The position numbers and the translations under genes were made by a program. From positions 1 through 59,837 of the forward strand of contig JBKJMN010000132.1 in assembly GCA_046596405.1 (NCBI GenBank): 59,837 nt of DNA, written 5' to 3'. Shown here piece after piece: positions 650-44,283 of the stretch (positions within the stretch are counted from its first letter, which is position 1; each line of letters opens with the position of its first letter). The notes under the pieces were generated by a model that searched no databases, was not told where the DNA came from, and saw only the letters and a list, made by a program, of their open reading frames with translations. Source of the DNA: Burkholderiales bacterium (GTDB lineage Bacteria > Pseudomonadota > Gammaproteobacteria > Burkholderiales > SG8-41).

Positions 650-1783
650 TCACCGCACGAGCACCATCGCCTTGATGCCCAAGGCCTGACTAATGCGGTC
701 GGCGGCCGCCCGCGCGTCGGTCTGGGTCGCATACGGTCCCGCGTGTACGCGGAACAAGCCGTCTTTCGGGTACACGTGCAGCGCCGGCGCAAGCCAGTCG
801 ATCTGCGTGCGCAAACGTGCGAGATAGTTTTCCGCGTTGTCCGGCGTGCCGAACGCGCCCAGTTGCAGGAACAATCCCTTCTGCCCGGTGGGCTCGACGA
901 CGACCGCGACCGTGGCAGCGGGTTTTTCTGGCGGCATCGCGGCCGTTTCCGCGTCGGCGGCTAAAGTGGCGGGCGGGGGCGGCAAAGCGACGGCGACCGG
1001 CGGCACGGCAGGCTGCAATGGCGTAATGCCTGGTTCATAAGGCTTGGGTGGAATTACCGCCATGGCCGGCGCGACCGGCGTGCCGGCATCGGGGAGGATG
1101 GTTTCGACCTCGACCAGCGCTTTGCCGCCGCCGAGCACGCCGAGCTTGTACGCGGCGGTGTACGAAAGATCGATCAGGCGGTCGGAGTGAAACGGCCCGC
1201 GGTCGTTGATGCGCACGACGACCGCCTTGTTGTTGGCAAGGTTGGTCACGCGCGCATAGCTCGGAATCGGCAATACCGGGTGCGCTGCGGTCATGCCGTA
1301 CATGTCGTAGATCTCGCCCGACGACGTCTTCTGGTCGTGATAGCGGCGCCCGTACCAGCTCGCGATGCCGCGTTCCCGGTACGGGAGTAGCCGCGTCATC
1401 GGCGTGTAAGTCTGGCCCATCACCGAATAGGGCCGCATGTTGGCGGGCCGCAGCGGCTCCGGGCGCGGCACCGCATCGGGAATCTGCTCGAGATTGGCGG
1501 GTGGATTGTCGCCGGGTCCGTCGTTCAGATAGTACCCGCCGCCGCGCGGAGCGGGCGGCCGGGTTGGCGCCGGCGCCGGCGCCGGCGCGGGCGTCACGGC
1601 GCCCGCGGGTGCCCGCGCGACCGGCGCGGATGGTTCGCGCGGGCTCATGCTGCCGCAGCCGGCCAGCGTGATCGCTACGAGCGCGGCGATAATCCAGGAT
1701 CGAGGATTGAGGATTGAGGCTCGAGCCGACCCCAAGCCTGCTGTCCGTGGCTGCGCGTTTTTCTGTTGTGTCTCACTCCTCAA
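650..1783 (-). CDS. rlpA: Septal ring lytic transglycosylase RlpA (lipoprotein with DPBB domain and C-terminal SPOR domain)
   Basis: Lipobox LAGC. DPBB core GIASWYG...GMTAAHPVLPIPSYARVTNL...VVVRINDRGPF. SPOR-like C-terminus LFLQLGAFG...NAENY. The start is TTG at 1783, with GAGGAG 6 nt upstream. An alternative TTG at 1735 gives a shorter signal peptide. Confidence 0.85.
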   Translation of the reverse strand: MRSETQQKNAQPRTAGLGSARASILNPRSWIIAALVAITLAGCGSMSPREPSAPVARAPAGAVTPAPAPAPAPTRPPAPRGGGYYLNDGPGDNPPANLEQIPDAVPRPEPLRPANMRPYSVMGQTYTPMTRLLPYRERGIASWYGRRYHDQKTSSGEIYDMYGMTAAHPVLPIPSYARVTNLANNKAVVVRINDRGPFHSDRLIDLSYTAAYKLGVLGGGKALVEVETILPDAGTPVAPAMAVIPPKPYEPGITPLQPAVPPVAVALPPPPATLAADAETAAMPPEKPAATVAVVVEPTGQKGLFLQLGAFGTPDNAENYLARLRTQIDWLAPALHVYPKDGLFRVHAGPYATQTDARAAADRISQALGIKAMVLVR

Positions 1784-1801
1784 TCCACACTCCTCGATCC
1801 T
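1696..1801. repeat. Heptamer-built imperfect inverted repeat at the rodA|rlpA junction
   Basis: Arm 1696-1719 is AGGATCG AGGATTG AGGATTG AGG. Arm 1774-1801 is CACTCCT CAATCCA CACTCCT CGATCCT. 22 of 24 paired positions are complementary, with a 58-nt spacer between paired parts. Confidence 0.85.
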
Positions 1802-2879
1802 AGCTTTGCACCAGTTTCTTATGCGTCTGTATGCTCATCAATATGCCGAGCCCGAGGCAGATCGTCACCAGGGAAGTTCCGCCGTAGCTTACGAGCGGCA
1901 ACGGCACGCCGACCACCGGCAGGATGCCGCTGACCATGCCCATGTTTACGAACGCATACGTAAAGAAACCCAGCGTGATCGCGCCGCCGAACAGCCGCGT
2001 GAACAAAGTTGGCGCATTGGCGGTGATCACGATGCCGCGACCGATCACGAGCAGGAACAGCACGAGCAGCGCAGAGTTGCCGAGCAGACCGAACTCTTCC
2101 GAAAACACCGCGAATATGAAATCGGTCGTGCGCTCCGGAATGAAATCCAGATGGGTTTGAGTGCCTTGCAGCCAGCCTTTGCCGACGAGTCCGCCCGAGC
2201 CGACGGCGATCGTCGATTGGATCGTGTGATAGCCGGCGCCGAGCGGGTCCTGGGTCGGATCGATCAAGGTCAAAATCCGCTGGCGCTGGTAGTCGTGCAT
2301 CATGCCCCACACGAACGGCATGCAGGCGGCGGCGGCGACGCCGAGCCCCGCGATGATGCGCCACGACAATCCCGCCAGAAAAAGCACATAACCGCCGGCC
2401 GCCGAAATCAAAAGTGCCGTCCCCAGATCGGGCTGACGCACGATGAGCCCGATCGGCACCAGCAGCAGGACGACCGCGACGATGTAATTCTTCAGCTTGA
2501 GCGTGGCTTCATAGCGGTCGAAATACCACGCGAGCATCAGCGGCACCGCGATTTTCATGAGCTCGGACGGCTGGATCCGGGTGACTCCGATATAAAGCCA
2601 GCGCCGCGCGCCGTTGACGATATCGCCGAACAGCGCGACGCAAACCAGCAGCATCACGCCCAGCACGTAGAGCGGCAGCGCAATGCGCCGCAGGAAATGC
2701 GGCGGCACGTTGGCGAATGCATACATAACGCCCAGCGCGACCAGGATGTTGGCGATCTGGCTGGAGATGCGCGGCACGCTCTGGTTGGAGCCGCTGAAAA
2801 TGGTCACGAGGCCGACCGTCATCAGGAGCAGCAGCGCGAACAGCAGCTGGTTGTCGATATGCGCGGTCAACACCCGCAT
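1800..2879 (-). CDS. rodA: Peptidoglycan glycosyltransferase RodA (SEDS family)
   Basis: Multi-TM FtsW/RodA/SpoVE-type sequence following mrdA. Trimmed from the track ORF (to 3131) to ATG at 2879 (MRVLTAHIDNQLL...), which sits just after the mrdA stop at 2887. Confidence 0.9.
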   Translation of the reverse strand: MRVLTAHIDNQLLFALLLLMTVGLVTIFSGSNQSVPRISSQIANILVALGVMYAFANVPPHFLRRIALPLYVLGVMLLVCVALFGDIVNGARRWLYIGVTRIQPSELMKIAVPLMLAWYFDRYEATLKLKNYIVAVVLLLVPIGLIVRQPDLGTALLISAAGGYVLFLAGLSWRIIAGLGVAAAACMPFVWGMMHDYQRQRILTLIDPTQDPLGAGYHTIQSTIAVGSGGLVGKGWLQGTQTHLDFIPERTTDFIFAVFSEEFGLLGNSALLVLFLLVIGRGIVITANAPTLFTRLFGGAITLGFFTYAFVNMGMVSGILPVVGVPLPLVSYGGTSLVTICLGLGILMSIQTHKKLVQS

Positions 2880-2886
2880 GAGGCGC

Positions 2887-4788
2887 CTAATCACGGCCGA
2901 CCTGGCTGTCGTCGGGCTTGAGCGGCGTCGGCTGCTTGCCGAGCAGGTAGTAATCGAACACCGCGCGCGCAATTGGCGCCGCGGCGCGTGCGCCGAAGCC
3001 GGCGTTTTCCACCACCACCGCGAGCGCCAGTTTGGGCTTGTCGGCGGGTGCATACGCGATGAAGAGCGCGTGGTCGCGATGGCGCTCGAGCACGCGGCTC
3101 TCGACGTATTTCTCGCCCTGCTTGATGGCAATTACCTGCGCGGTTCCGGTCTTGCCCGCGCTGACGTAAGGCGTACCGGCGAAGGCGCGCGCGCCGGTGC
3201 CCTCCTTGTTGACGCCGATCAGCGCGTTCTTGACGACCGCGAGATGTTCGGGTTTGAGCTCCAGCGTGCGCTCGGGCTGGGGTTCGATGACGGCGCGATT
3301 CCGGGTGACGATGTCTTCGACGTAGTTGACGATATGCGGCCGGAACATCACGCCATCGTTGGCGATCGTAGCGATCGCCTGCGCGAGCTGCAGCGGCGTA
3401 TAGGAGTTGTAACCCTGGCCGATACCCACGCTGATGGTTTCGCCCGCGTACCATTTCTGCTTGAAACGCTTGGTCTTCCACGCCTGCGAGGGGAGGATGC
3501 CGGCGGACTCGCCGGTGATGTCGATGCCGGTGCGCGTGCCGAAGCCGAACTGCTTCATGAAAGTGGCGATGTTGTCGATGCCCAGATCGTTGGCGAGCAT
3601 GTAGTAATAGGTGTCGCAGGACACCACGATCGATTTGTACATGTCGACCATGCCGTGGCCGCCGACCTTGTCGTCGCGGAAGAAGTGCCCGCCGAAGTTG
3701 TAACCGCCGGGGTCGCTGATCGCCTGCTCGGGACGCCGCTTGCCGTAAGTCAGCGCGGCCAGCGCCATGAACGGCTTGAACGTGGAGCCCGGTGGGTAGG
3801 TGCCGGCGAGCGCGCGGTTAACCATCGGCCGGTCGATCGATTCGTTGAGTTCCTTCCAGTTCTGCGAGTCGATGCCGTCCACGAACAAATTGGGATCGAA
3901 GCCGGGCTTGGAGACGAACGCGACGACCCCGCCGGTGCTCGGGTCAATCGCGACCAGCGCGCCCCGGAATTGGCCGAACGCGCGATTAACCACTTCCTGC
4001 AGCACCGCATCGAGGTTCAGCACGAGGTTGTTGCCCGACACGGGCGCCGAGCGCGATAGCGTGCGCACGGCACGGCCGGCGGCGTCGACTTCGACTTCCT
4101 CGACACCGGTAGTGCCGTGCAGGTGTGTCTCGTAGCTTTGCTCAAGCCCGACCTTGCCGATGTAGTCGGTGCCGCGGTAGTTGGCATCGACGCCTTTTTC
4201 CTCGAGCTGCTCGATCTCTTGCGGGTTAATGCGCCCGATATGGCCGACGACGTGCGAAAACAGTTCAGCGTGCGGATATTGGCGAAACAGGCGCGCGTTG
4301 ATCTCGACGCCCGGAAAGCGATAGCGGTGGGCGGCAAAGCGCGCGATTTCCTCGTCCGACAGGCGCGTGCGTATCGGCAGGCTCTCGAAGCTCTTGCTCT
4401 CGTCGATCAGTTTGCGAAAACGCCGCCGGTCCTTGGCCGTGATTTCGACCACGGTCGCGAGGTCGTCGATCAGCGCTTCGATGTCGTCGACCTTGCGCGG
4501 CGTGATTTCTAGGGTGTAAGCCGAATAATTGGTGGCGAGGAGCACGCCGTTGCGGTCGACGATGATGCCGCGATTGGGCACGATCGGCACGATCGAGATG
4601 CGGTTGGCCTCCGCGAGCGTCGTGTAATAGCTGTGCTGCACGACCTGCAGGTAGAAAAAGCGCGCAAACAGCAGAAAAAACATGCACAGCACGAATCCGG
4701 ATGCGATGGCGAGCCGCACGCGGAAGTGGTGAATCTCGAGCCGCGAATTCCTGAGCTCGACGCCGGGGTTGATAGAAAGTTCAGACAC
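2887..4788 (-). CDS. mrdA: Penicillin-binding protein 2 (elongasome transpeptidase)
   Basis: N-terminal TM anchor, SxxK motif STFK, KTGTA motif, 633 codons, position between mreD and rodA. GTG start. Confidence 0.93.
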   Translation of the reverse strand: MSELSINPGVELRNSRLEIHHFRVRLAIASGFVLCMFFLLFARFFYLQVVQHSYYTTLAEANRISIVPIVPNRGIIVDRNGVLLATNYSAYTLEITPRKVDDIEALIDDLATVVEITAKDRRRFRKLIDESKSFESLPIRTRLSDEEIARFAAHRYRFPGVEINARLFRQYPHAELFSHVVGHIGRINPQEIEQLEEKGVDANYRGTDYIGKVGLEQSYETHLHGTTGVEEVEVDAAGRAVRTLSRSAPVSGNNLVLNLDAVLQEVVNRAFGQFRGALVAIDPSTGGVVAFVSKPGFDPNLFVDGIDSQNWKELNESIDRPMVNRALAGTYPPGSTFKPFMALAALTYGKRRPEQAISDPGGYNFGGHFFRDDKVGGHGMVDMYKSIVVSCDTYYYMLANDLGIDNIATFMKQFGFGTRTGIDITGESAGILPSQAWKTKRFKQKWYAGETISVGIGQGYNSYTPLQLAQAIATIANDGVMFRPHIVNYVEDIVTRNRAVIEPQPERTLELKPEHLAVVKNALIGVNKEGTGARAFAGTPYVSAGKTGTAQVIAIKQGEKYVESRVLERHRDHALFIAYAPADKPKLALAVVVENAGFGARAAAPIARAVFDYYLLGKQPTPLKPDDSQVGRD

Positions 4789-5302
4789 GGTCGGGGTCGG
4801 ACAGCGGCCGCTGCGGCAGCTTGAACAGGAAAGTCAGCGCCGGCCACATAGCGGCGGCGACGAAGCTGCCCACGAAATAGCGGAAGCCCGGGAATGCGGC
4901 GCCCGCAAACAGGCGCACTGCAAGCACTATCGTGTCGTTCAGCAACAGGAGCACCAAAACATGCAGTATCTGGTCGCGCATCGTGAACATCAGCACGCGG
5001 CGATGCAGGACGATGCCCGCGTACGCGAGCACCGAATAGGCGAGGGCATGCTGGCCGAACAGGCTGCCTTCCGCAACATCCATGATCAGACCCAGCAACC
5101 ACGCCGAAGTGAAGCCGACCTTGCGCGGTTGCTGTATGCACCAGTAAAGCACGACCAGCGCGACGAAATCCGGCTTCACATAGATCCACCAGCCCGACCA
5201 TGGCAAGAGGTCGACCAGCAGCGCTGCGATGAACGTGATGACGATGAATACGCCGCGTACCGGCAGCAGGATTTCGTGCAGAGAAATGTCGCGTGCCTGC
5301 AT
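4781..5302 (-). CDS. mreD: Rod shape-determining protein MreD
   Basis: Small polytopic membrane protein in the mreB-mreC-mreD order. Its ATG overlaps the mreC stop (ATGA), and its stop overlaps the mrdA start. Confidence 0.85.
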   Translation of the reverse strand: MQARDISLHEILLPVRGVFIVITFIAALLVDLLPWSGWWIYVKPDFVALVVLYWCIQQPRKVGFTSAWLLGLIMDVAEGSLFGQHALAYSVLAYAGIVLHRRVLMFTMRDQILHVLVLLLLNDTIVLAVRLFAGAAFPGFRYFVGSFVAAAMWPALTFLFKLPQRPLSDPDRV

Positions 5303-6201
5303 CAGGACCCCCGGCGCGGTTTTTTGGGCCGCGGCGCTTTGGGCTCTTCGACGGGCCGCTCCGGCAGCTTGTTTTCCCAGTTGAGCACCAGCACCTGGCT
5401 ATGGCTCGCGACCCCGGCGAGCGGTTTGCCCGTGATGCGCGCAAACAGATAGGCCGCGTTGCGCTCGACGTTGGATACTTCGGCGACGGGCAGTCCCGGC
5501 GGATAGATGCCGTCGATGCCCGAAGTCACCAGCTGGTCGCCGTTCTGGAAATCGGCGTTCAGCGGAATGAACTTCAATTCGAGCTGGCCGTCGTTGCCGG
5601 TGCCGCCGAGTACTGCGCGCAGGCCGTTGCGCAGGTTTTGCACCGGCACGGCTTGTTCTTTGTCGGTGACCAGCGTGACTTCCGAAAGCCATGGGTAGAC
5701 GCGCGTGACCTGGCCGACGATGCCGATCTGGTCGATCACCGGCTGGCCCGGCTTGACGCCGTGCTGCTGGCCTTTGTCGATGACGATTTTGCGCGTGAAG
5801 AGATCGCGCCCCGCATACAGCACCTCGGCGAAAATTGTGCTTTCGGGAAAGCGCTGCCGCGCCCCCAGCAAGTCGCGCAAGTGCAGATTTTCAGCCGCGA
5901 GCGCCGCGTACTTGCGCAGCATGATGGCGTCATTGAGGCTTTGTGCCGCAAGCTTCGTGTTTTCGGTGCGTAATGAGGTTTGCGTGACGAAGAATTCGCC
6001 GACCGTGTCGAGCAAGGCGCGCGGCGCGCCGCCCAGCCTCTGTAACGGGTAGATGATGACGGCGACCACCTTACGGACGCCTTCGAGGTAACCGTAGCGC
6101 GCGTCCGCCACCAGGAACGCGACCGACAGCAACGAGCACAACAGCAGACGGGCTAGGGGAGTGGGGCCGCGTCTGAAAAATGGCGGCGGAGAATGTTCCA
6201 T
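5302..6201 (-). CDS. mreC: Rod shape-determining protein MreC
   Basis: N-terminus MEHSPPPFFRRGPTPLARL plus a TM segment, a coiled-coil segment and beta-rich C-terminal domains, in the position after mreB. Confidence 0.88.
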   Translation of the reverse strand: MEHSPPPFFRRGPTPLARLLLCSLLSVAFLVADARYGYLEGVRKVVAVIIYPLQRLGGAPRALLDTVGEFFVTQTSLRTENTKLAAQSLNDAIMLRKYAALAAENLHLRDLLGARQRFPESTIFAEVLYAGRDLFTRKIVIDKGQQHGVKPGQPVIDQIGIVGQVTRVYPWLSEVTLVTDKEQAVPVQNLRNGLRAVLGGTGNDGQLELKFIPLNADFQNGDQLVTSGIDGIYPPGLPVAEVSNVERNAAYLFARITGKPLAGVASHSQVLVLNWENKLPERPVEEPKAPRPKKPRRGS

Positions 6202-6205
6202 CAGC

Positions 6206-6284
6206 CGTGAGGCGAGAGGCGAGAGGCGAGAGGCGGTTCAAAGCGGTGGGTTTTCGCCTCACTCCTCACGCCTTACTCCTCACG
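6206..6284. repeat. Heptamer-built imperfect inverted repeat at the mreB|mreC junction
   Basis: Arm 6206-6235 is CGTGAGG (CGAGAGG)x3 CG. Arm 6255-6284 is CG CCTCACT CCTCACG CCTTACT CCTCACG. 24 of 30 positions are complementary, with a 19-nt spacer. Confidence 0.9.
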
Positions 6285-6288
6285 CCGC

Positions 6289-7401
<1,113 letters not shown>

Positions 7402-7424
7402 TTAAGCTAAAACGCACGCTGCCC

Positions 7425-7712
7425 ATGGCTCTGACGCTCGACGACGTAAAACGCATCGCGCAACTGGCGCGCATTGAAGTGGCGCCGGACGAAGCGGGCG
7501 AGGTACTCGATCGCATGACCGGAATTTTCCGCCTGATCGAAGCAATGCAGGCCGTCGATACGACGGGCGTCGTGCCGATGTCCCATGCGCAGGACTTAAC
7601 GTTGCGGCTGCGCGATGATGTGGTGACCGAGGGCGACCGGCACACCTTGTTCCAAGCTATCGCGCCGCAGGTCGAGGCGGATCTTTATCTGGTGCCCAAG
7701 GTTATTGAGTGA
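7425..7712 (+). CDS. gatC: Asp/Glu-tRNA amidotransferase subunit C
   Basis: 95 codons. [19 protein letters not shown]...LYLVPKVIE is typical GatC. Lies upstream of gatA and gatB. Confidence 0.92.
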
Positions 7713-7792
7713 GGAGGGAGGGGTGAGGAGTGAGGCGCTTCGCGCCGGTTAGCTTTCCTCCTCTCGCTTCTCGCCTCTCGCCTCCCTCCTCC
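7707..7792. repeat. Heptamer-built imperfect inverted repeat at the gatC|gatA junction
   Basis: Arm 7707-7737 is GAGTGAG GAGGGAG GGGTGAG GAGTGAG GCG. Arm 7757-7792 is CCTCCTC TCGCTTC TCGCCTC TCGCCTC CCTCCTC C. The outer 11 bp are perfect (7711-7721 with 7781-7791), and the inner 11 of 16 pair. Confidence 0.88.
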
Positions 7793-7799
7793 TGCTTTC

Positions 7800-9257
7800 A
7801 TGCTTAATTCAACGCTCAAAGAACTGGCTGTCGAGCTTGCCGCCAGGCGCGTGTCCAGCGTTGAAATCACTGAATACTTTCTTAAGCGAATCAACGGGCT
7901 GGGAAAAACGCTCAACGCGTTTATCAGCGTCGACGACGAGCGCAGTCTGGCGGCCGCCCGCGCGGCCGACGCCATGCGCGCACATGGTCTGGCGGGCCCG
8001 TTGACCGGGATCCCGCTCGCGCACAAAGACATCTTCTGCGCGCAGGGCTGGCGCACGACGTGCGCGTCGAAAATTCTGGCGAATTTCGTCGCGCCATATG
8101 ACGCGCATGTCATCGAACTCTTTAATCGAGCCGGCGCGGTCATCGCGGGCAAGACCAACATGGACGAGTTTGCGATGGGCTCGTCGAACGAGACTTCGTA
8201 TTACGGCGCGGTAAAGAATCCGTGGGATCACAGCGCCGTGCCCGGCGGCAGTTCAGGCGGCTCCGCGGCCGCGGTCGCAGCGCGCCTGGCGCCCGCGGCG
8301 ACCGGCACCGATACCGGCGGCTCGATCCGGCAGCCCGCGGCGCTATCGGGCGTCTGCGGCCTCAAGCCCACTTACGGCGTGGTGTCGCGTTACGGCATGA
8401 TCGCGTTTGCTTCCAGCCTCGACCAGGCGGGACCCTTCGCCAAAACCGCCGAAGACCTGGCCTTGATGATGAACGTGATGGGCGGCTACGACGCGCGCGA
8501 TTCGACGAGTTTGCAACGCGAGCCTGAAAACTACGGGCGCGACCTCACCCAGTCCGTAAAGGGCATGCGTATCGGTCTGCCGGCCGAATTCTTTGCCGCC
8601 GGCATGGCGCCTGACGTGGCGCGCGCGGTCGAGCAGGCGATTGCGGAATTCAAAAAGCTCGGCTGCGAAACGGTCGAGGTAGCGCTGCCCAATATGCAGC
8701 TGTCGGTGCCCGTATATTACGTGCTGGCGCCGGCCGAGGCGTCGAGCAACCTGTCGCGTTTCGACGGCGTGCGCTATGGTTACCGCGCGCCGGACTATAC
8801 CGATCTGGCGGATATGTACAGCAAGACGCGCGCGCAGGGCTTCGGTGCGGAAGTGAAGCGCCGCATCCTGATCGGTACCTATGTGCTGTCGCATGGCTAT
8901 TACGACGCGTACTATTTGCAAGCGCAGAAGCTGCGCCGCCTGATCGCGCAGGATTTCGTCGAAGCGTTTAAGAAGTGCGACTTGATCATGGGGCCGACGG
9001 CGCCCACCACCGCGTTCAATCTCGGCGAGAAAGCCGGCGACCCGGTGCAGATGTATCTGTCGGACATCTACACTATCGCGGTCAATCTTGCGGGCCTGCC
9101 CGGCATGTCGATACCCGCCGGGTTTGGTGAAAAAAATCATCCTGTCGGCCTGCAGATCATCGGCAATTATTTCGGCGAACCGAAAATGCTCAACGCCGCG
9201 CACCAATACCAGCAGGCGACCGACTGGCATTTGCGCATGCCGCCGGGACTCGTATGA
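7800..9257 (+). CDS. gatA: Asp/Glu-tRNA amidotransferase subunit A
   Basis: Amidase signature [12 protein letters not shown]...[11 protein letters not shown]. 485 codons. Stop overlaps the gatB ATG (ATGA). Confidence 0.96.
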
Positions 9258-20126: not shown

Positions 20127-21854
20127 CTACGCGTTCAGGCGCCCGAGCATAGCGCGCAGGCGGTCGGGGTCGTCGGCGCGCAGCATCCTGCTCACCTGCG
20201 GCACGATGTCGCGCAGCTTGGACTTGAGAACCCGCTGCTTGACTTCGAGCAGGCGTGCCGGATGCATCGACAGCTGGCGCAACCCGAACCCGAGCAAGAG
20301 CCGCGTGAGTTGCACGTCGCCCGCCATCTCGCCGCACAGCGCGATCGGCTTGCCGGCCTTGTTGCATGATTTGATGATGTGCGCGACGAGATTCAACACT
20401 GCCGGATGCAGCGGATCGTACAGGTGCGATACGGTGTCGTCAGTACGGTCGATTGCGAGCGTGTATTGAATGAGATCGTTGGTGCCGATCGACAGGAAAT
20501 CGAGGCGGTTGATGAATGTATTTATCGCCAGCGCCGCCGCGGGGATTTCTATCATGCCCCCGATTTCGACCCTGCGGTCGAACGGAATGAAGCGATCCTC
20601 GAGGCTTTTCTTCGCCTGCGCGACGTAGCCGAGCGCCTGCGTGATCTCCGGTGTGCTCATCAGCATCGGAATCAGGATCTTGAGCTTGCCGTAGTGAGAG
20701 GCGCGCAGCATCGCGCGCAGCTGGGCCAGAAACATTTGCGGCTCGGTCAGCGACAGCCTGATTGCGCGCAGCCCCAGCGCCGGGTTGGTGCCGGTCGAGA
20801 CCGCGCCGTTGATCTGCTTGTCGGCGCCCAGATCGTAGGTGCGGATAGTGACCGGCAACCCGTCCATTTCGCGCACGACCCGCCGGTAGGCCTCGAACTG
20901 TTCATCCTCGTCGGGCAGATTGTCGCGATTCAGGAACAGGAATTCCGTGCGGAAGAGGCCGATACCGGTCGCGCCATTTTCGCGCGCGCCCTTGATGTCG
21001 TCCGGCAATTCGATGTTTGCGTGCAGCTCAATCTCGACCTCGTCGAGGGTGGTGGCGCGGGTGTCGCGCAGGCGCTTCAATTTCTGGCGCTCGAGTTCCC
21101 ATTGATGCTGGCGCAGCTTGTACTCAGCGAGCGCCTGCGGGTCCGGATCGACGATGATCACGCCCTGCGTGCCGTCGACGATGATGAGCTCGTTTTCGCG
21201 GATCAGCTGGCGCGCATGGTGCAGCGCGACGATCGACGGAATATTAAGGCTGCGCGCGACGATCGCCGTGTGCGACGTGGTGCCGCCCAGATCGGTGATG
21301 AAACTCGCGAACTGGTGCTGCTTGAACTGGATCACGTCAGCCGGCGACAGGTCGTGCGCGACCATGATCAGGTTTTGCTCGTCGCCGGCGTGGGTCGGCG
21401 GCGCGTAGCCAGGTTGTCCGAACAGCACCTTCATCAGGCGCTCGACGACCTGGATCACGTCGGCCTTGCGCTCGCGCAGATAGCCGTCTTCGATTTGATC
21501 GAACTGGTCGAGCAGCGCGTCCATCTGCACTTTGAGCGCCCATTCCGCATTGCATTGCTCGGCTTTGATGATATCGCGCGGCGCTTTCGCCAGCGTCGCA
21601 TCGTTCAATATCATCAGGTGCAGGTTCAGAAAGGCGTCGAATTCCTGTGGCGCACTGGCGGGAATCTGGGTCCGCAACTGCTCGAGCTCGGCGCGCACGG
21701 TCTGCAGCGCCGTGTCGAACCGCGCCACCTCCTCGCCGACCTGCTGCTGCGGGATTGCGTAATGCGCGACTTCGAGCCGGGCATGGGAGACCAGGTGCGC
21801 GTGACCGATGGCGATGCCACCGGACACCGGAATGCCGTGCATGGTGAAGCTCAC
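20127..21854 (-). CDS. ptsI: Phosphoenolpyruvate-protein phosphotransferase (PTS enzyme I, no GAF domain)
   Basis: 575 codons. GGTTSHTAIVARSLNIP (phospho-His region), GLFRTEFLF, SIGTNDLIQY. GTG start at 21854, with an alternative ATG four codons in. Confidence 0.93.
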   Translation of the reverse strand: MSFTMHGIPVSGGIAIGHAHLVSHARLEVAHYAIPQQQVGEEVARFDTALQTVRAELEQLRTQIPASAPQEFDAFLNLHLMILNDATLAKAPRDIIKAEQCNAEWALKVQMDALLDQFDQIEDGYLRERKADVIQVVERLMKVLFGQPGYAPPTHAGDEQNLIMVAHDLSPADVIQFKQHQFASFITDLGGTTSHTAIVARSLNIPSIVALHHARQLIRENELIIVDGTQGVIIVDPDPQALAEYKLRQHQWELERQKLKRLRDTRATTLDEVEIELHANIELPDDIKGARENGATGIGLFRTEFLFLNRDNLPDEDEQFEAYRRVVREMDGLPVTIRTYDLGADKQINGAVSTGTNPALGLRAIRLSLTEPQMFLAQLRAMLRASHYGKLKILIPMLMSTPEITQALGYVAQAKKSLEDRFIPFDRRVEIGGMIEIPAAALAINTFINRLDFLSIGTNDLIQYTLAIDRTDDTVSHLYDPLHPAVLNLVAHIIKSCNKAGKPIALCGEMAGDVQLTRLLLGFGLRQLSMHPARLLEVKQRVLKSKLRDIVPQVSRMLRADDPDRLRAMLGRLNA

Positions 21855-21872: not shown

Positions 21873-21964
21873 AAGGATGAGGGATGAAGGATGAAGGATG
21901 AAGTAAGGCTAGCGCTCGCAAGGGCTGCCATGCATTCATCCTTCATCCTTCCGCCTTCATCCTT
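21873..21964. repeat. Heptamer-built imperfect inverted repeat at the ptsH|ptsI junction
   Basis: Arm 21873-21903 is AAGGATG AGGGATG AAGGATG AAGGATG AAG. Arm 21934-21964 is ATTCATC CTTCATC CTTCCGC CTTCATC CTT. 27 of 31 positions are complementary, with a 30-nt spacer. Confidence 0.9.
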
Positions 21965-21966
21965 GA

Positions 21967-22236
21967 TTACTCCCCTTCTCCAAAATAATCGGCAATCAGC
22001 CCGGTGAGCGCCTTCATCGCGGCTTCTTCATCGGGTCCGTCGGTCTCGATATTGATGGTCGTGCCCTTGGCCGCAGCCAGCATCATGACGCCCATGATGC
22101 TTTTGGCGTTGACGCGTTTGCCGTTGCGCGCGACCCAGATTTCGCTCGCGAACTGGCCGGCGAGCTGGGTCAACTTGGCCGACGCGCGAGCGTGCAGGCC
22201 GAGCTTGTTGATGATCTCAGCTTCCCGTTGCAGCAT
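21967..22236 (-). CDS. ptsH: Phosphocarrier protein HPr
   Basis: 89 codons. His15 in GLHARA and Ser46 in AKSIMGVM are both present. Confidence 0.93.
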   Translation of the reverse strand: MLQREAEIINKLGLHARASAKLTQLAGQFASEIWVARNGKRVNAKSIMGVMMLAAAKGTTINIETDGPDEEAAMKALTGLIADYFGEGE

Positions 22237-34240: not shown

Positions 34241-34244
34241 TTCC

Positions 34245-34690: not shown

Positions 34691-34741
34691 ATTTGTAACC
34701 TAAAATAGGCGCGAGCTTTTCTCCTCGCGTGGGTGGCGCCA

Positions 34742-35782: not shown

Positions 35783-35799
35783 TCAAAAGGCTCAAGCGC

Positions 35800-36947: not shown

Positions 36948-37019
36948 CTGCGGGAGCGTCCACCCGATCCCGCATCCGACTTAAAGTAACCGCTGTTGAA
37001 ATTATCAGGAGTACTGAGC

Positions 37020-37370: not shown

Positions 37371-37390
37371 CCCGCATTTCTTCGTAGACA

Positions 37391-37415
37391 AGGGCGCCGC
37401 GCGGCGCCCTTTTTT
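37391..37415 (+). terminator. Rho-independent terminator after erpA (convergent with anmK)
   Basis: AGGGCGCC gcgc GGCGCCCT, then TTTTT. Confidence 0.8.
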
Positions 37416-37418
37416 ATT

Positions 37419-38510: not shown

Positions 38511-38516
38511 TGACTG

Positions 38517-39821
38517 TTAATCGAGGCGGGCGAGGTTGGTGGTGCGCAACAGGTCGAGCCGCTCCCCGTATAGCTTGGCCGTCTGTTCGAACTTCGGCCG
38601 GAGTTCCGGGGTAATCGGCTGGGCCGCGGGCATCGCGACATGCAGCGGGTTTTGATGCACGTCATTGATACGGAATTCGTAGTGCAGATGCGGGCCGGTG
38701 GCGAGCCCAGTCGCGCCGACGAATCCGATGACTTCACCTTGCGCCACGCGCTTGCCTTTGTGCAAGCCCTTGGCGATCCCGGATAAATGCCCATACCACG
38801 TCGTGTACTTGGATTGATGGCGTAACACGACGACGTTGCCGTAGCCGCCCTGGCGAGCCGCGCTGTCGACGACGCCGTCCGCGGTGGCTTTCACGCGCGT
38901 GCCGGTCGGCGCGCCGTAGTCGATGCCTTTATGCGCGCGCCACGTTTGCAGCACCGGGTGGAAGCGCGCAGTGCTGAACCCTGAGGTGATGCGAGAGAAC
39001 TCGAGCGGCGAGCGCAAAAATTGCTTGCGCAGGTTCTTGCCGTCTGCCGTGTAGTAGCCGCCTTCGTGCTCGGCGGTGTTGAACCATACCGCGGTGTAGG
39101 TCTTGCCCTGATTTACGAATTCGGCCGCCAGCACGCGTCCGGACTTGACCGGCTCGCCGCGGTCGTAGAACACCTCATACACGACGCTGAACCGGTCGCC
39201 CTTGCGCAAGTCGCGGTGAAAGTCGATGTCGGTTGAAAAGACCTCGGCGATCTGGGTGGCGATGGTATCGGGCAGCCCGGCCGCGTCGGTCGCGCCGAAC
39301 AGCGAATTGCGGATCTCCGCCGACTTCATCAGCACGCGCCGCTCGAGCTGCACCGGTTCCTGTTTGACGACGAAGTTGGTTGGAGTGCGATCTATCGAGA
39401 CCAGATTGCTGCCGCTCAGGTAACGCAGGCTGACCAGCTTGCCCTCCGCGGTGGCCGTCGCGCGCACGACTTTGCCCGGGATCAGTTGATAGAGCGCCTT
39501 CGCCTGCGCATTATTGCGCAGCAGTTGCGCCGCCTCGGCGTCGTCGATTTGCAGTCGCGCGAGCAAAGTTGCGACGGTGTCGCCGCGCTGAATGCGTTCC
39601 TCGCGCGCGAAACCCGCATCGCGGTCAGCGACGGGCGCTAAACTCGGCAATGCCATTTCTTCCACGACATTATGGAAGGTTATTTTTTCAACCAGCGTGT
39701 CCGGCGCGATGCCAAATGCGGCGACTACACTGAAGCAGGGGACTGCAACTAGGGCGGCCACGACTCGGTGGCGGAGCGTAAGATCACCTATCAAGGCGGC
39801 GACTTTTCGGGTTAAAATCAT
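38517..39821 (-). CDS. M23 family metallopeptidase with an N-terminal anchor and OapA/LysM-like region
   Basis: HKGIDYGAPTGTRV...GATGLATGPHLHYEFR are the M23 zinc-site motifs. 434 codons. Confidence 0.88.
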   Translation of the reverse strand: MILTRKVAALIGDLTLRHRVVAALVAVPCFSVVAAFGIAPDTLVEKITFHNVVEEMALPSLAPVADRDAGFAREERIQRGDTVATLLARLQIDDAEAAQLLRNNAQAKALYQLIPGKVVRATATAEGKLVSLRYLSGSNLVSIDRTPTNFVVKQEPVQLERRVLMKSAEIRNSLFGATDAAGLPDTIATQIAEVFSTDIDFHRDLRKGDRFSVVYEVFYDRGEPVKSGRVLAAEFVNQGKTYTAVWFNTAEHEGGYYTADGKNLRKQFLRSPLEFSRITSGFSTARFHPVLQTWRAHKGIDYGAPTGTRVKATADGVVDSAARQGGYGNVVVLRHQSKYTTWYGHLSGIAKGLHKGKRVAQGEVIGFVGATGLATGPHLHYEFRINDVHQNPLHVAMPAAQPITPELRPKFEQTAKLYGERLDLLRTTNLARLD

Positions 39822-39943
39822 GCTTTTAGCATATTATCTTAAGGCCCCCTTTGGAGCGACGCGGCAAGCTTAGCAGATCGGTACCGGGGCGCAACCCTTG
39901 AATTTCACATCGTGAAACGCAGTCCCTTTGCAGCGAGACCGGC

Positions 39944-41143
39944 ATGACCCCGTTGAGTGAGCAACTCGAAATCATCAAACGCGGCTGCGACGAGTTGCTG
40001 GTCGAGACCGAGCTCGCCGACAAGCTAAAAACCGGCCGGCCGTTACGCATCAAGGCTGGATTCGATCCGACCGCGCCCGATCTGCATATCGGCCATACCG
40101 TGCTGCTCAATAAGCTACGTCAATTGCAGGATCTCGGGCACCAGATCGTTTTCCTGATCGGCGACTTCACGGGAATGATAGGCGACCCCACCGGCAAGAA
40201 CGCGACGCGGCCGCCGCTGACCCGCGACGCGGTCGCCGCCAACGCGCAAACCTATACCGCGCAGGTCTTCAAGATACTCGACCAGGCCACAACGCAGATC
40301 GCATTCAATTCGACCTGGATGGACAAGCTCACTTCGGCCGACATGATCAAGCTGGCCGCGACTCACACGGTAGCGCGCATGCTGGAGCGCGACGATTTCG
40401 GCAAGCGCTACAAGTCGAACCAACCGATCGCGATCCACGAATTTCTCTACCCGCTGGTGCAGGGCTACGATTCGGTCGCGCTCAAGGCGGACCTCGAACT
40501 GGGCGGTACGGACCAGAAGTTCAACCTGTTGATGGGACGCGAGCTGCAGAAGCATTACGGCCAGGCGCCGCAATGCATACTGACGATGCCTTTGCTCGAA
40601 GGGCTGGACGGCGTCAACAAGATGTCGAAATCGCTCGGCAACTACGTCGGCATCACCGACCACCCGCACGACATGTTCGGCAAGCTGATGTCGATTTCGG
40701 ATGATCTGATGTGGCGGTATATAGAACTGCTGTCGTTCGCGCCGCTCGCGACCGTCAGGCACTGGAAAAAAGACGTCGACGCAGGCCGCAATCCGCGCGA
40801 CATCAAAGTCGCGTTCGCGCAGGAAATCGTCACGCGTTTCCATTCCAATGCCGCGGCCGCCGCGGCGCTCGCCGATTTCGAGGCGCGCTTCAAACAGGGC
40901 GAAATTCCGGCCAATATCGCCGAGGTGACGCTTGATGCCGGCGCCGACGGCATCGCGATTGCGAATCTGCTCAAGCAGGCCGCGCTCACCGCGAGCACTT
41001 CCGAAGCGTTACGCATGATCGCGCAGGGCGGGGTCAAGCTCGACGGCGAAAAAGTCACCGACAAGGCGCTCAAGCTCGCTGCCGGCCGCCAGATCGTCCT
41101 GCAGGTCGGCAAACGAAAATTTGCGCGCGTGACCCTGCGTTAG
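39944..41143 (+). CDS. tyrS: Tyrosine-tRNA ligase
   Basis: Class I motifs HIGH (LHIGHTV) and KMSKS (KMSKSLGN), plus a C-terminal S4-like domain. 399 codons. Confidence 0.95.
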
Positions 41144-41153
41144 CGGCGCGGCG

Positions 41154-42266
41154 CTAGGCGCGGTAGCGTCGAACGAACTTGCGGTCGATGTGGTCCTTCC
41201 ACCGCCACACCCACGCACCTTCGAGCTTGAGACGGCCATACGACGCGATCGCATACCGGTCGCCGGCGCTGAGCAGCGCCAACGCGAGCCGTTGCGGCTG
41301 GTATGGTCTGAGCGCGGCACCCGCCAGTGCGCGGCGCAGATTGGCCGCGAGCACCGGCCCTTGGCGCACGGCATACACGCCCGACTTCGGATAATCGTGG
41401 CCCGCGATGGTCGCGCAGTCGCCCGCGGCAAACACTTCACGCTGCGAGATCGACGACAGGCATGCATCCACGCTGACAAATCCGCGCGCATCGAGCGCGA
41501 GCCGCGTGTCCTTGAACCAGGCTGGCGGCGCGGCGCCGGTTGCCCAGATGGTCGCATCGCTGGGGATGGGGGCGGCGTTCGCCACGATTACCGCGTCAGC
41601 TTCGACGCGCACGACCCCGGCATTCAAATGCACCGCAATCCCGCGCTCGGCGAGCAGACGTTCGCCCGCGGCGCGCGTGGCACGATTGCGGTCCGGCAAT
41701 ACACCCGGGCTGGCCGTGACGAGGGCGAATGCGGTTGCGCGCGACGAAGTGGATTGCGCGAGCCGGTAGTGCATTGCCAGCACCAGCTCGAGTCCGGCGG
41801 CGCCGCCGCCAACGATCACTACACTGCGCACCGTGCCAGCCCGCGAGGAGTCGGCGATCCGCTCCCAGCGCTGTGCGAACGCGGGAAACGGTTTTACCGC
41901 GAGCGCGTGCTCGGCAGCGCCGGCGACTCCTGCGGTGGGCGGCATGGAGCCGACGTCGAGAGAAAGCAGGTCGTAATCGAGGAGGCGGCCGTCGCCAAGC
42001 CCGACCTGGCGACGCGCAGTATCGACACCGCACGCCGCCGCTCGCACAAAACGCACGCCGGCGCGGTGCGCGAGCTGCGGCAAATCGACCTGACAGTCAG
42101 CGAATTCGTAGTGGCCCGCAATCAGGCCCGGCAGCATCCCGGAATAGGTGGCGAATTGCGCGCAATCGACGAGCACGATCTCGGTATTCGCCGCCGGCAG
42201 CGCGCCGAACCGGCGCACGACTTCCAGATGGCTGTGACCGCCCCCGACGAGGACGACGCGCTTCAC
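41154..42266 (-). CDS. FAD/NAD(P)-binding pyridine nucleotide-disulfide oxidoreductase family protein (TIGR03169-like by recollection)
   Basis: Rossmann motifs VVLVGGGHSH and VVIVGGGAAGLE. 370 codons. GTG start. Confidence 0.7.
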   Translation of the reverse strand: MKRVVLVGGGHSHLEVVRRFGALPAANTEIVLVDCAQFATYSGMLPGLIAGHYEFADCQVDLPQLAHRAGVRFVRAAACGVDTARRQVGLGDGRLLDYDLLSLDVGSMPPTAGVAGAAEHALAVKPFPAFAQRWERIADSSRAGTVRSVVIVGGGAAGLELVLAMHYRLAQSTSSRATAFALVTASPGVLPDRNRATRAAGERLLAERGIAVHLNAGVVRVEADAVIVANAAPIPSDATIWATGAAPPAWFKDTRLALDARGFVSVDACLSSISQREVFAAGDCATIAGHDYPKSGVYAVRQGPVLAANLRRALAGAALRPYQPQRLALALLSAGDRYAIASYGRLKLEGAWVWRWKDHIDRKFVRRYRA

Positions 42267-42288
42267 GCGGGAGCGTTCATGCGCGGCG

Positions 42289-42918
42289 CTATTCCGGCGC
42301 CTTGCCCCACAATTGTTTCAAACGGTTGTCGCGCCCGCAGCCGCTGCGGTAGTACTTGTAGCGCAGCGGGTTCTTCAGATAATAATCCTGATGGTAATCC
42401 TCGGCCGGATAGAATTCCGCCGCGCGCGTGATTTCCGTAACGATGGCGCCGGTAAACGGCTTGTTGCGGTCGAGCGCCGCTTTGGACGCTTCAGCAAGCC
42501 GTTTCTGCTCGTCGTCGGTATAAAAAATCCCGCTGCGATATTGGGAGCCGTGATCGCAGAACTGCTGGTCTTTGACCGTCGGATCGATGTTATGCCAGAA
42601 CACGTCGAGCAGTTTTTCGTAAGTTACTTTCTGGGGGTCGTAAACAACCTGGACCGCCTCCGTGTGGCCGGTGCGGCCCGCGGACACCTCCTCGTACGTC
42701 GGATTTTTTTTCTGGCCCCCGATGTAGCCCGACGTGGTGGACACCACGCCAGGCAGCACGTCGAACGGTTGTTCCATGCACCAGAAGCAGCCGCCGGCGA
42801 AAATCGCTTTGGCTTGGGCGGGCTTTGGCGCGGGTTTGGCGGTCTGGCCGGTGGCGGCGGTCGCCCCCAATAACAGCGTAGCGCTAAACGCGATGAGTAC
42901 ATTGCGGATGGTCGACAT
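42289..42918 (-). CDS. msrA: Peptide-methionine (S)-S-oxide reductase MsrA with an N-terminal signal peptide
   Basis: GGCFWCME active site and TGHTEAVQVVYDP. Preceded by a hydrophobic signal-like N-terminus, MSTIRNVLIAFSATLLLGATAATG. Confidence 0.9.
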   Translation of the reverse strand: MSTIRNVLIAFSATLLLGATAATGQTAKPAPKPAQAKAIFAGGCFWCMEQPFDVLPGVVSTTSGYIGGQKKNPTYEEVSAGRTGHTEAVQVVYDPQKVTYEKLLDVFWHNIDPTVKDQQFCDHGSQYRSGIFYTDDEQKRLAEASKAALDRNKPFTGAIVTEITRAAEFYPAEDYHQDYYLKNPLRYKYYRSGCGRDNRLKQLWGKAPE

Positions 42919-43082
42919 AACGATCTCCTAGAATGCGAATGGATTGCGGCCGGCAGGGCGGGGTGCCAGCTTAGTCGCCGGCGCCGGACTTTCCTTGCAT
43001 GCCGCATATTATCAGCCCCGGCGCTCCCTCGAGAGCCTTGATTAAACGCGTATCGCGTCGCGGTCTCCAGCGACGGTCAGCC

Positions 43083-43116
43083 ACGTCACGAAGCTGTAAC
43101 AATCGCCGCTTATCAT
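43083..43116 (+). promoter_or_regulatory. Candidate Pho box plus -10 element for pstSCAB-phoU
   Basis: ACGTCAC gaag CTGTAAC (5/7 and 6/7 matches to CTGTCAC with the 4-nt spacer of a Pho box), then TATCAT 10 nt downstream. Lies about 50-85 nt upstream of the pstS ATG. Confidence 0.4.
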
Positions 43117-43166
43117 GTGCCCATTCGCAGCTTATCCCTCGCGTTTTCACTCTGGAGAGTCAGTAA

Positions 43167-44216
43167 ATGAAATCCGAATCCTGCCAACGATTTATCGCAT
43201 CCGCAGCGATGGCATTGGGGCTTGCGGCGGCAATCCCGGCAGTTGCCGCCGACATCACCGGTGCCGGCGCGACTTTTCCGTACCCGATCTATTCGAAGTG
43301 GGCCGAAGCCTACCGCGCCAAAACCGGCGTCGGACTGAATTATCAATCGATCGGTTCCGGCGGGGGCATCAAGCAAATTCTCGCCAAGACGGTCGATTTC
43401 GGCGCTTCGGATGCGCCGCTCCAGCCCGCGCAATTGGAAAAGGACGGGCTCGTGCAATTTCCGACGGTGATGGGCGGCGTAGTGCCGGTCTTCAATCTGG
43501 AAGGCATCAAGGCGGGCGGTTTGCAGTTGAGCGGTGCCCTGCTCGCCGACATTTATCTCGGCAAAATCACGAAGTGGAACGCGCCGGCCATCACGGCGCT
43601 CAACAAGGGTGTCAAGCTGCCTGACCAGGACATCACCGTCGTGGCGCGTTCGGACGGCTCGGGAACCACGTTCATTTTCACGCACTACCTGGCGAAAGTG
43701 AGCGGGGAATGGAAAGACAAGGCGGGCAACAACACGTCGGTCAAATGGCCGGCGGGGGTTTCCGGTAAAGGCAATGAAGGTGTGGCGGCCTACGTGCAGC
43801 GGTTGTCCGGATCTGTCGGCTACGTGGAATATGCTTACGCATTGCAGAACAAGATGTCGTATGCGCTGCTGCAAAACAAGGACGGCAATTTCGTCAAGCC
43901 CGATGACAAGTCTTTCCGCGCGGCCGCGGCCAATGCGCAGTGGGACAAAGCTCCCGGCTTCTACCTGCTGCTGACGGACCAGCCCGGCAAAGAGAGCTGG
44001 CCGATTACGGGCGCGACTTTCATACTCATGCACAAGAAACAGGACAAGCCCGACAATGCCACCATCGCGCTCAAATTTTTCGATTGGGCGTACGAAAGCG
44101 GCGACAAGATGGCGCTCGACCTCGACTACGTGCCGATGCCGGACAGCGTGGTCAAGCTGGTGAAGGCGGAATGGAAAAAAATCCAGGACGCATCAGGCAA
44201 GCCGGTGGCGTACTAA
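43167..44216 (+). CDS. pstS: Phosphate ABC transporter substrate-binding protein
   Basis: Signal peptide, then ITGAGATFPYPIYSKWA...YQSIGSGGG, typical PstS. Confidence 0.95.
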   Translation: MKSESCQRFIASAAMALGLAAAIPAVAADITGAGATFPYPIYSKWAEAYRAKTGVGLNYQSIGSGGGIKQILAKTVDFGASDAPLQPAQLEKDGLVQFPTVMGGVVPVFNLEGIKAGGLQLSGALLADIYLGKITKWNAPAITALNKGVKLPDQDITVVARSDGSGTTFIFTHYLAKVSGEWKDKAGNNTSVKWPAGVSGKGNEGVAAYVQRLSGSVGYVEYAYALQNKMSYALLQNKDGNFVKPDDKSFRAAAANAQWDKAPGFYLLLTDQPGKESWPITGATFILMHKKQDKPDNATIALKFFDWAYESGDKMALDLDYVPMPDSVVKLVKAEWKKIQDASGKPVAY

Positions 44217-44219
44217 GCG

Positions 44220-44246
44220 TTGCTACAGCGTTGTTGCTACAGCGTT
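44220..44246 (+). repeat. Tandem direct repeat (13-mer TTGCTACAGCGTT twice, 14-nt period) just after the pstS stop
   Basis: Exact copies at 44220-44232 and 44234-44246. Confidence 0.85.
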
Positions 44247-44259
44247 CAAACCGAAGTAA

Positions 44260-44283
44260 CGCGAGAGGCTGCGGCCTCTCGCG
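44260..44283 (+). other. Perfect 10-bp stem-loop between pstS and pstC
   Basis: CGCGAGAGGC tgcg GCCTCTCGCG, followed by tggtttc (no clean U-tract). The arms use the same GCGAGAGGC/GCCTCTCGC words as the mreB|mreC and gatC|gatA elements. Confidence 0.8.

Follow-up and report, generated by a model that had tools for sequence, protein, structure and literature searches.

Heptamers are over-represented among the long simple sequence repeats of many bacterial genomes, with no function assigned to them (PMC4692102). The closest described case is that of the GGGAATC heptamer repeats of Xanthomonas, in which each of two genomes carries approximately 185 arrays, mostly of four units (Rehm et al. 2015, PLoS One 10:e0144275; PMC4692102). 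Of the ~185 arrays per genome, 70–75 are convergent (inverted) pairs that are capable of forming a stem-loop. The arrays are 89–93% intergenic, lie on average 28 nt behind the upstream open reading frame (ORF), stand mostly between co-directional ORFs and rarely between divergent ones, and occur between the same genes in both species with varying length and sequence (PMC4692102). They are transcribed, and no regulatory role or function was found for them; a DNA-level role in structure or binding was proposed, and a suggestion by Mrazek was relayed, which attributes the heptamer excess to the stretch of DNA that the polymerase holds (PMC4692102). Here we describe four elements, each built of two complementary heptamer arrays, which occupy the rodA/rlpA, mreB/mreC, gatC/gatA, and ptsH/ptsI junctions inside operons of a Burkholderiales bacterium. 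They lie in a stretch of 59,837 nt (GenBank assembly GCA_046596405.1, contig JBKJMN010000132.1, positions 1–59,837), the whole of which is hereafter called the window.

The preliminary description of this stretch, made from its letters alone, had taken the combined architecture as one not known before. That claim has to be given up, because the inverted pairing of heptamer arrays is already published for Xanthomonas (PMC4692102), and the present elements are a variant of it and not a new kind. As in the Xanthomonas pairs, there are approximately four heptamer units, arranged in inverted pairs near the 3′ end of the upstream ORF and rarely found between divergent genes. However, the Xanthomonas arrays follow one genome-wide consensus, (GGGANTN)n, with G-quadruplex potential, whereas the units described here are locus-specific and a third of the arrays lack GG. 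Three features found here are not reported for Xanthomonas: the junction is filled, the arms are in register with the stop codon, and they abut start codons that lack a Shine-Dalgarno (SD) sequence. The hosts also differ, as Xanthomonas belongs to a different class of Proteobacteria from the present clade.

Other described systems share part of this anatomy. The TAACTGA direct repeats of Beggiatoaceae and cyanobacteria place a stop in every frame, finish 1 nt short of start codons, and stand in place of a recognisable SD, and their arrays are almost never inverted (1/170 sets) (PMC4679880). They and the cyanobacterial short tandemly repeated repetitive (STRR) sequences are, like the present elements, tandem heptamers in intergenic space, but they are direct arrays of one fixed heptamer (CCCCAGT, TTGGTCA, CAACAGT or TAACTGA) upstream of genes, whereas the present arrays are complementary pairs with locus-specific units, anchored at the upstream stop codon. 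Repetitive extragenic palindromic (REP) elements and bacterial interspersed mosaic elements (BIMEs) of enterobacteria and pseudomonads resemble them as imperfect palindromes in transcribed extragenic sequence, located behind stop codons and inside operons. They are, however, copies of one conserved sequence of ~35 nt, mobilised by REP-associated tyrosine transposases (RAYTs) and without tandem periodicity, whereas no sequence beyond the 10-mer GAGGAGTGAG is shared here, and no evidence of a transposase was met, though no search aimed at one was made in the 60 kb of this genome. REP elements stabilise upstream mRNA, and a REP within ~15 nt of a stop codon reportedly interferes with termination, a result attributed to Liang, Rudd and Deutscher in 2015. 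Intercistronic stem-loops that process or stabilise mRNA, and the hairpin-bridged sites of T4 genes 25 and 38, likewise hold a stem between cistrons with a stop and a start codon at its feet, but those stems are unique, non-repetitive sequences with no slippage-built periodic arm and no lineage-wide family.

The window proteins were named by NCBIfam (RodA, RlpA, MreB, MreC, GatC, GatA, HPr, PtsI, PstS, and PstC), and tandem arrays were called with Tandem Repeats Finder (TRF). The four elements span positions 1691–1806 (rodA/rlpA), 6206–6288 (mreB/mreC), 7707–7791 (gatC/gatA), and 21873–21964 (ptsH/ptsI). Their parts are as follows, with the arms named in the sense of the mRNA.

1778–1806, minus strand: 5′ arm of the rodA/rlpA element, purine-rich (GATCGAGGAGTGTGGATTGAGGAGTGAG), overlapping the rodA stop codon TAG at 1800–1802; seen as a period-14 array, in the inverted repeat and in the fold
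1720–1777, minus strand: rodA/rlpA loop of 58 nt, in which TTG at 1733–1735 is the closest canonical start in frame ahead of the RlpA lipobox
1691–1719, minus strand: 3′ arm of the rodA/rlpA element, pyrimidine-rich (CCTCAATCCTCAATCCTCGATCCT in sense), AGGATTG repeated 3.4 times, probably within the rlpA frame
6255–6288, minus strand: 5′ arm of the mreB/mreC element (GCGGCGTGAGGAGTAAGGCGTGAGGAGTGAGGCG), directly after the mreB stop codon at 6289–6291
6236–6254, minus strand: mreB/mreC loop, from the fold
6206–6235, minus strand: 3′ arm of the mreB/mreC element, CGCCTCT repeated 3.9 times, perfectly homogeneous (100% TRF matches)
7707–7737, plus strand: 5′ arm of the gatC/gatA element, in which the gatC stop codon at 7710–7712 is the first three bases of the first unit
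7738–7756, plus strand: gatC/gatA loop, with a small inner hairpin (GGCGC-TTC-GCGCC) from 7734
7757–7791, plus strand: 3′ arm of the gatC/gatA element, CCTCTCG-type units; the gatA ATG (7800) comes 8 nt after its end, and the interval has no SD
21935–21966, minus strand: 5′ arm of the ptsH/ptsI element (AAGGATGAAGGCGGAAGGATGAAGGATGAA), adjoining the ptsH stop codon TAA at 21967–21969; part of the top-ranking inverted repeat
21904–21934, minus strand: ptsH/ptsI loop, from the fold
21873–21903, minus strand: 3′ arm of the ptsH/ptsI element, CTTCATC units, followed by GAGGGTGAAAGCCTC and the ptsI GTG at 21852–21854

TRF reported period-7 arrays at 1696–1719, 6209–6235, 6257–6283, 7707–7735, 7760–7784, 21873–21903, and 21935–21964, and assigned period 14 to the right arm of the rodA/rlpA element (1774–1800). 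The copy number of these arrays is 3.4–4.4. Only two other period-7 rows, both weak (2.1 and 2.9 copies), were found in the window, in which the four elements are the sole non-coding period-7 arrays with at least three copies. They also hold the longest inverted repeats of the window, at ptsH/ptsI (30 nt, 90% complementary), rodA/rlpA (29 nt, 86%), gatC/gatA (27 nt, 81%), and mreB/mreC (27 nt, 78%). The positions given in the preliminary description are confirmed, and its hand-counted arm complementarity is close to the computed 78–90%, with loops of 19–58 nt as it had stated. When period-7 autocorrelation was computed for all intergenic gaps of the window, only the four elements reached 13–14 of 14, and the other gaps did not exceed 10.

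Each junction folds into one long imperfect stem, more stable than shuffled controls, with z-scores of the minimum free energy against dinucleotide shuffles of −4.7, −2.9, −3.4, and −7.2 for the four. The units (AGGATTG, GAGGCGA, GAGTGAG, and AAGGATG), the loops, and the lengths differ among the four loci. The decamer GAGGAGTGAG, described earlier as common to three loci, has exactly three occurrences in the window, each in a different element, whereas 0.05 would be expected.

The distribution of such arrays was examined in two sets of relatives. An MreC-anchored scan gave 80 genome loci (1.1 Mb) from metagenome-assembled genomes (MAGs) of uncultured Betaproteobacteria/Burkholderiales, and a metagenome scan gave 80 further MreC-anchored loci, 160 in total (labelled L001–L161). 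The closest relative in either set has 88–89% MreC identity to the window. Exact-protein look-up found no record with a MreB identical to that of the window, and for HPr it led to a single public contig of 2 kb (L081), which ends within the heptamer array of ptsH/ptsI (2120–2150); the repeats break short-read assemblies.

Among the non-genic arrays with at least three copies in the first 80 loci, period 7 accounts for 146 of ~214, compared with 12, 12, 11, and 17 arrays for periods 5, 6, 8, and 9, respectively. Only 20 period-7 arrays lie deep within genes, though 60% of the bases do, and the density of arrays outside genes is approximately 11 times that deep within genes. Copy number has its mode at 4 units and its median at 4.2 (156 arrays). 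Two arrays stand together in 49 clusters, and in 39 of these 49 they are complementary at z < −3. The density of clusters is 0.75–1.6 per 10 kb in loci with at least 58% MreC identity to the window and 0.03 per 10 kb below this value, a 30-fold jump; the heptamer hairpins characterise a single clade of uncultured Betaproteobacteria (Burkholderiales-type MAGs).

Of 103 clusters, 89 occupy gaps between co-directional genes, 12 are in convergent gaps, and 1 is in a divergent gap, whereas the available gaps of at least 40 nt number 352, 74, and 131, respectively. These counts indicate that the elements sit behind stop codons and avoid promoter regions, and the earlier idea of a genuine family at gene junctions holds well beyond the window. 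In the relatives, 24 different junctions carry elements, most commonly rodA/rlpA (28/56 loci), mreB/mreC (23/77), gatC/gatA (11/58), and gatA/gatB (8/43). Outgroups have a gap of only 11–14 nt with a GGGGG SD at mreB/mreC, a gap of 1–4 nt at gatC/gatA, and an ATGA overlap at gatA/gatB, the last of which is retained in the window (9254–9257). We conclude that these junctions were tightly coupled and that the elements arose in them by insertion or expansion specific to the clade.

The purine-rich arm comes first in 35 of the two-array clusters, the pyrimidine-rich arm comes first in 1, and the order is unclear in 13, so that only one of the two possible polarity classes is in use. Because a purine-first hairpin reads identically on both strands, this polarity says nothing about the sense strand. 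The preliminary description had entered this caveat correctly, but it had called the shared polarity weak evidence, and 35 against 1 is still a strong regularity.

The 5′ arms are in register with the upstream stop codon. Often the first unit of the arm begins with the upstream stop codon itself, as in gatC of the window (units TGAGGAG, GGAGGGG, TGAGGAG, and TGAGGCG), in L037 (TGATGAA, four times), and in L046 (TGATGGG, TGATGAG, and TGATGGG). In 22 of 50 elements, the stop triplets of the 5′ arm have a dominant phase equal to that of the upstream gene's stop (expected 1/7, p = 4e-7), and among 15 junction types this phase is the commonest one at 6 (p = 0.013). As 7 is not divisible by 3, three successive units suffice to close every frame; in the mreB/mreC 5′ arm of the window, TGA/TAA triplets at +9, +16, +23, and +30 do so. 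At gene ends that bear an array, the two alternative frames are both closed within 30 nt in 44% of cases, compared with 6% at other gene ends. Sense 5′ arms hold 0.71 stops per unit, antisense 5′ arms 0.59, and shuffles 0.39 (p = 0.02).

At the other foot of the stem, mreC and gatA were said to lack an SD of their own in the window, and this extends to the relatives: an SD was found at none of the 47 element-bearing mreC starts and none of the 11 gatA starts (anti-SD duplex ΔG about 0). Since these genes lie directly behind the arms, they must be translated either through the element or around it. At gatB, a weak GGAG-type SD is retained outside the arm (mean duplex ΔG −3.8), and ptsI of the window has its own SD between the 3′ arm and its GTG. 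At mreB/mreC of the window, 4 nt separate the end of the 3′ arm from the mreC ATG (6199–6201), which is overlapped by a TGA (TGATG, 6199–6205). A stop codon overlaps or abuts the mreC ATG (TGATG, TAATG, TGAATG or TAGATG) in most members of the clade and not in outgroups, and the variation in the type of stop suggests selection. In L036 and L037, the mreC AUG itself is paired with bases just past the mreB stop. In the subgroup of the window, GGAG, followed after 6 nt by GTG/ATG, opens a frame of 22–24 codons that ends at the mreC TGATG/TAATG. We considered this ORF as a gene and rejected it because the peptide is not conserved, its position relative to the mreB frame is variable, and a pyrimidine-rich arm leaves every frame open.

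At rodA/rlpA, the RlpA lipobox LAGC (Cys codon 1655–1657, minus strand) directly follows the 3′ arm and lies upstream of the ATG at 1646–1648, which therefore is not the true rlpA start. Since the nearest in-frame canonical start (TTG 1733–1735) falls in the hairpin loop, the n-region of the RlpA signal peptide (ASILNPRSW) is probably encoded by the 3′ arm. The view that these structures fill intra-operon junctions accordingly stands for the four junctions, with the reservation that the rodA/rlpA element is probably not wholly intergenic. In several relatives, ATG, GTG, and TTG are all absent between the rodA stop and the RlpA lipobox. For annotation, this means that the arrays make gene callers extend or misplace starts, for example, those of rlpA and mreC.

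The elements persist at the same junctions while their unit sequence turns over quickly, and orthologous junctions of relatives differ in both unit sequence and copy number. In the sub-lineages, the mreB/mreC units belong to the families GGAGTGA/GGCGTGA (the group of the window), AGCTATC, GAGTGTT/GAGTTTT, GAGTGCA, GTTCCAA, AGTCACG, and GGGTTCC. Units from orthologous junctions agree within one mismatch in 23% of comparisons, and those from unrelated junctions in 13% (p = 1e-10). The most direct view of the turnover comes from L043 and L049, which are 96.7% identical over 4.5 kb, with 99–100% identity in the 70-nt flanks on either side of the mreB/mreC element. The 110-nt element itself (2869–2982 in L043) is nearly unalignable between the two, the mreB stop is TGA in one and TAG in the other, and one 3′ arm is now a perfect array of 4.3 copies. 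In this pair, the element has turned over more than 20 times faster than its flanks. Changes by whole units are also seen: L120, compared with L106–L109, shows the loss of two units in one arm and of three in the other. Slippage and homogenisation within each arm build and renew the arrays, which generalises the earlier suggestion, drawn from the window, that the two arms are homogenised separately.

TRF matches are higher in the sense 3′ arm than in the 5′ arm (89.8% vs 83.4%; 32 vs 12 cases, p = 0.0009), which makes it the more homogeneous of the two, and perfect arrays comprise 12 sense 3′ arms and 2 5′ arms. This asymmetry has the same direction in the divergently transcribed gatCAB and mreBCD-rodA operons, indicating that it follows gene orientation and not replication.

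Near-identical copies of a whole element were found neither in the 60-kb window nor within any 20-kb locus, and the best same-genome BLAST matches (~77 nt, 78–83% identity) fit the similarity of arm units. Transposition or gene conversion was tested through the sharing of units within a genome, where 21% of same-genome pairs agree within one mismatch compared with 13% between genomes, a weak trend (p = 0.08). That the elements are not copies of one mobile sequence, as the preliminary description held, is therefore supported, their likeness being at the level of the unit only.

We tentatively interpret the element as an intercistronic mRNA stem-loop, built by slippage, that keeps the stop and start codons adjacent, a reading to which we give somewhat less than an even chance. 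In the polycistronic mRNA, the two arms would fold into an imperfect stem of 25–30 bp with the upstream stop and the downstream start at its feet. The stop-rich 5′ arm would end translation in all frames right after the upstream gene, and the stem would loop out the inserted 80–110 nt, bringing the upstream stop and the downstream start into physical proximity. A ribosome at the stop codon might then melt the base of the stem and expose the SD-less start of mreC or gatA, so that translation of the downstream gene would be coupled to that of the upstream gene at a reduced level. After endonucleolytic cleavage, the stem could also shield the upstream cistron from 3′ exonucleases in the manner of a REP. 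Elsewhere, REP elements and intercistronic stem-loops shield the mRNA segments upstream of them, ribosomes can couple the translation of two genes by opening a structure in which the second start is hidden, and hairpins bridge the split ribosome-binding sites of T4 genes 25 and 38.

Several observations weigh against this interpretation. The fold of the sense strand is the more stable one in 25 of 45 elements, against 20 for the antisense strand (p = 0.17), and in 23 of 53 mreB/mreC junctions, where G·U pairs number 150 in sense and 180 in antisense; this absence of a sense-strand preference argues against strong selection on the stability of an mRNA stem. RNAalifold, applied to the two alignable mreB/mreC families, found just 1–2 compensated pairs, a weak and uninformative result, and while conserved unit cores pair, changes at variable positions of the units mostly go without compensation. 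In several lineages (for example, L001/L004/L005/L006, L013, and L094), pairing and periodicity have degraded at an unchanged gap length, indicating that the hairpin is dispensable, and some adjacent arrays are not complementary (e.g., gatA/gatB in L050, and L037 at 5255). The extreme turnover would be expected of a sequence driven by mutation no less than of a selected one, and the Xanthomonas arrays yielded no regulatory role. Rfam 15 gave 0 matches at the gathering score for these elements and, at E ≤ 1, only generic miRNA-precursor hairpins (E 0.1 to 1), so that the search proposed in the preliminary description did not place them in a known RNA class.

Much of this would be expected if the arrays were a functionless by-product of mutation (molecular drive), in which a bias toward 7-nt slippage makes and homogenises the arrays, template switching in quasi-palindromes keeps the arms alike, and selection merely filters the tolerated sites, namely those that follow stop codons and lie away from promoters, with stops in the arrays that prevent extension of the upstream protein. 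This explanation, the main rival and in our view somewhat unlikely, accounts well for the extreme preference for period 7, the sharp phylogenetic boundary, the turnover at more than 20 times the rate of the flanks, and the changes by whole units exemplified by L120. The decayed and non-complementary pairs, the lack of a sense-strand fold bias, and the scarcity of compensation also fit, as do the failure of the Xanthomonas study to find a function and the idea of Mrazek et al. that heptamer excess reflects a polymerase footprint (as cited in PMC4692102). It has difficulty with the continued occupancy of the same junctions, mostly by complementary arrays, down to ~60% MreC identity while the units have been fully replaced, with asymmetries of homogeneity and stop content that are oriented by gene direction, and with essential SD-less genes (gatA and mreC) standing directly behind the arms in dozens of species. 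If the stems instead served as a target of RNase III or another endonuclease, or as a partial attenuator, they would uncouple the mRNA of abundant upstream products (MreB, HPr, and GatC) from that of less abundant downstream ones. In E. coli, the upstream product of both mreB/mreC and ptsH/ptsI is needed in excess, and stems of 25–30 bp with regular internal loops behind stop codons would suit such a role. We nevertheless consider processing or attenuation unlikely, as no U-tract follows the stems, the terminator scan picks no long stem, and the sense strand again shows no fold bias. An intrinsic (Rho-independent) terminator, tried as a candidate, was rejected on similar grounds, since the 3′ arms run into start codons or coding sequence and have no T-run.

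The remaining explanations are of lower probability. A role of the DNA itself, through a non-B structure (G-quadruplex, cruciform, or H-DNA) or an array of 7-bp protein sites that acts on replication, transcription, or chromosome organisation, would agree with the strand-symmetric layout, with the purine/pyrimidine asymmetry of the arms, and with the 34 of 156 arrays that have GGG or CCC in every unit. However, 56 of the 156 arrays have no GG at all, and the window units contain at most GG, yet copy number still peaks at four; on these counts the G-quadruplex was rejected as a general cause of period 7 and four copies. A single sequence-specific binding protein is excluded because units differ between loci of one genome, and features oriented by gene direction are unexpected for a purely DNA-level role, which leaves this explanation quite improbable. 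The preliminary description had read the purine arm as a run of SD sequences and the pyrimidine arm as anti-SD mimics, which would sequester or present ribosome-binding sites. The 5′ arms of the window and its nearest relatives are indeed rich in GGAG and GAGG, and the frame of 22–24 codons in the subgroup of the window begins with a GGAG, 6 nt, GTG/ATG arrangement. In the relatives, however, 29 of 45 sense 5′ arms lack an SD core (GGAG, GAGG or AGGA), and orthologous junctions use AGCTATC, GTTCCAA, GAGTTTT, and AGTCACG instead, so that SD mimicry is out as a general mechanism and has become a very improbable account of the elements. Least credible of all is a mobile element, either a miniature transposable element with inverted repeats (MITE) or of the REP/RAYT type, transposing into junctions. 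It is favoured by the independent gain of insertions at formerly overlapping junctions in different sub-lineages, and by some gatA/gatB inserts in relatives with AT-rich interiors of 100–190 nt between repeat-built inverted ends, which look MITE-like. Within a genome, though, the likeness is at unit level with no near-identical copies, the four window elements differ in unit, loop, and length, and target-site duplications were not noticed in the junction sequences, for which no dedicated search was made.

The present clade provides a second, independent case of the inverted-pair heptamer layout, and it adds clues that point to translation, namely the stop register, the closure of three frames, the SD-less essential downstream genes, and the asymmetries that follow gene direction. 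If these clues hold, an unexplained class of repeats would become a testable mechanism that sets expression ratios within operons, with culturable Xanthomonas as a test bed. In its most far-reaching form, the intercistronic stem-loop would be a lineage-wide coupling hairpin, in which the stop-phased array serves as an all-frame stop, the partner array folds the insert away, and ribosomes re-initiate on the SD-less start, with 7-nt slippage tuning the stem length and hence the expression ratio of the cistrons at hundreds of operon junctions per genome. We consider this extension unlikely; if true, it would give a function to the excess of heptameric repeats in bacteria, including the Xanthomonas pairs.

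A further hairpin of the window had been described as a one-unit version of the same structure.

44260–44283, plus strand: simple pstS/pstC hairpin (CGCGAGAGGC / GCCTCTCGCG) with a stem of 10–11 bp, carrying the CGAGAGGC motif

It proved to be a plain stem in which 7-nt periodicity was not found, and membership in the family cannot be assigned to it. Ahead of this hairpin, just past the pstS stop, lies a perfect 14-nt direct repeat (44219–44246; GTTGCTACAGCGTT twice). In a convergent gap of the window (51590–51670), there are two tandem hairpin units 39 nt apart, each ending in TTGTATATCCCC; no further copies of this unit were found in the rest of the window or in the 161 loci.

Other variations were noted at the junctions of relatives. 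In L115, L116, L118, L119, and L140, the mreB/mreC junction is contracted to 31–37 nt and holds one or two 5′-type units (GCGTGAGGAGTGAGGCG) with little or no 3′ arm; in L140, the 5′-type units stand alone. At gatA/gatB, L012, L016, L026, L028, L031, L046, and L047 carry other palindromic insertions, the arms of which consist of 8–9-nt units; the insertion units at this junction in relatives include CCACAGAG, CCGCAAAG, and GCCGCCAAG. A search of the window for the REP-like motif GGGAGAGGGTTGGGGTGAGGG gave no occurrence. In relatives, a second, REP-like hairpin (CCCTCTCCCC...GGGAGAGGGTTGGGGTGAGGG) is nested in the loops of gatA/gatB heptamer elements (L015, 6985–7005; L033, 6619–6639), and it is also present in the loops of L008, L014, and L037.

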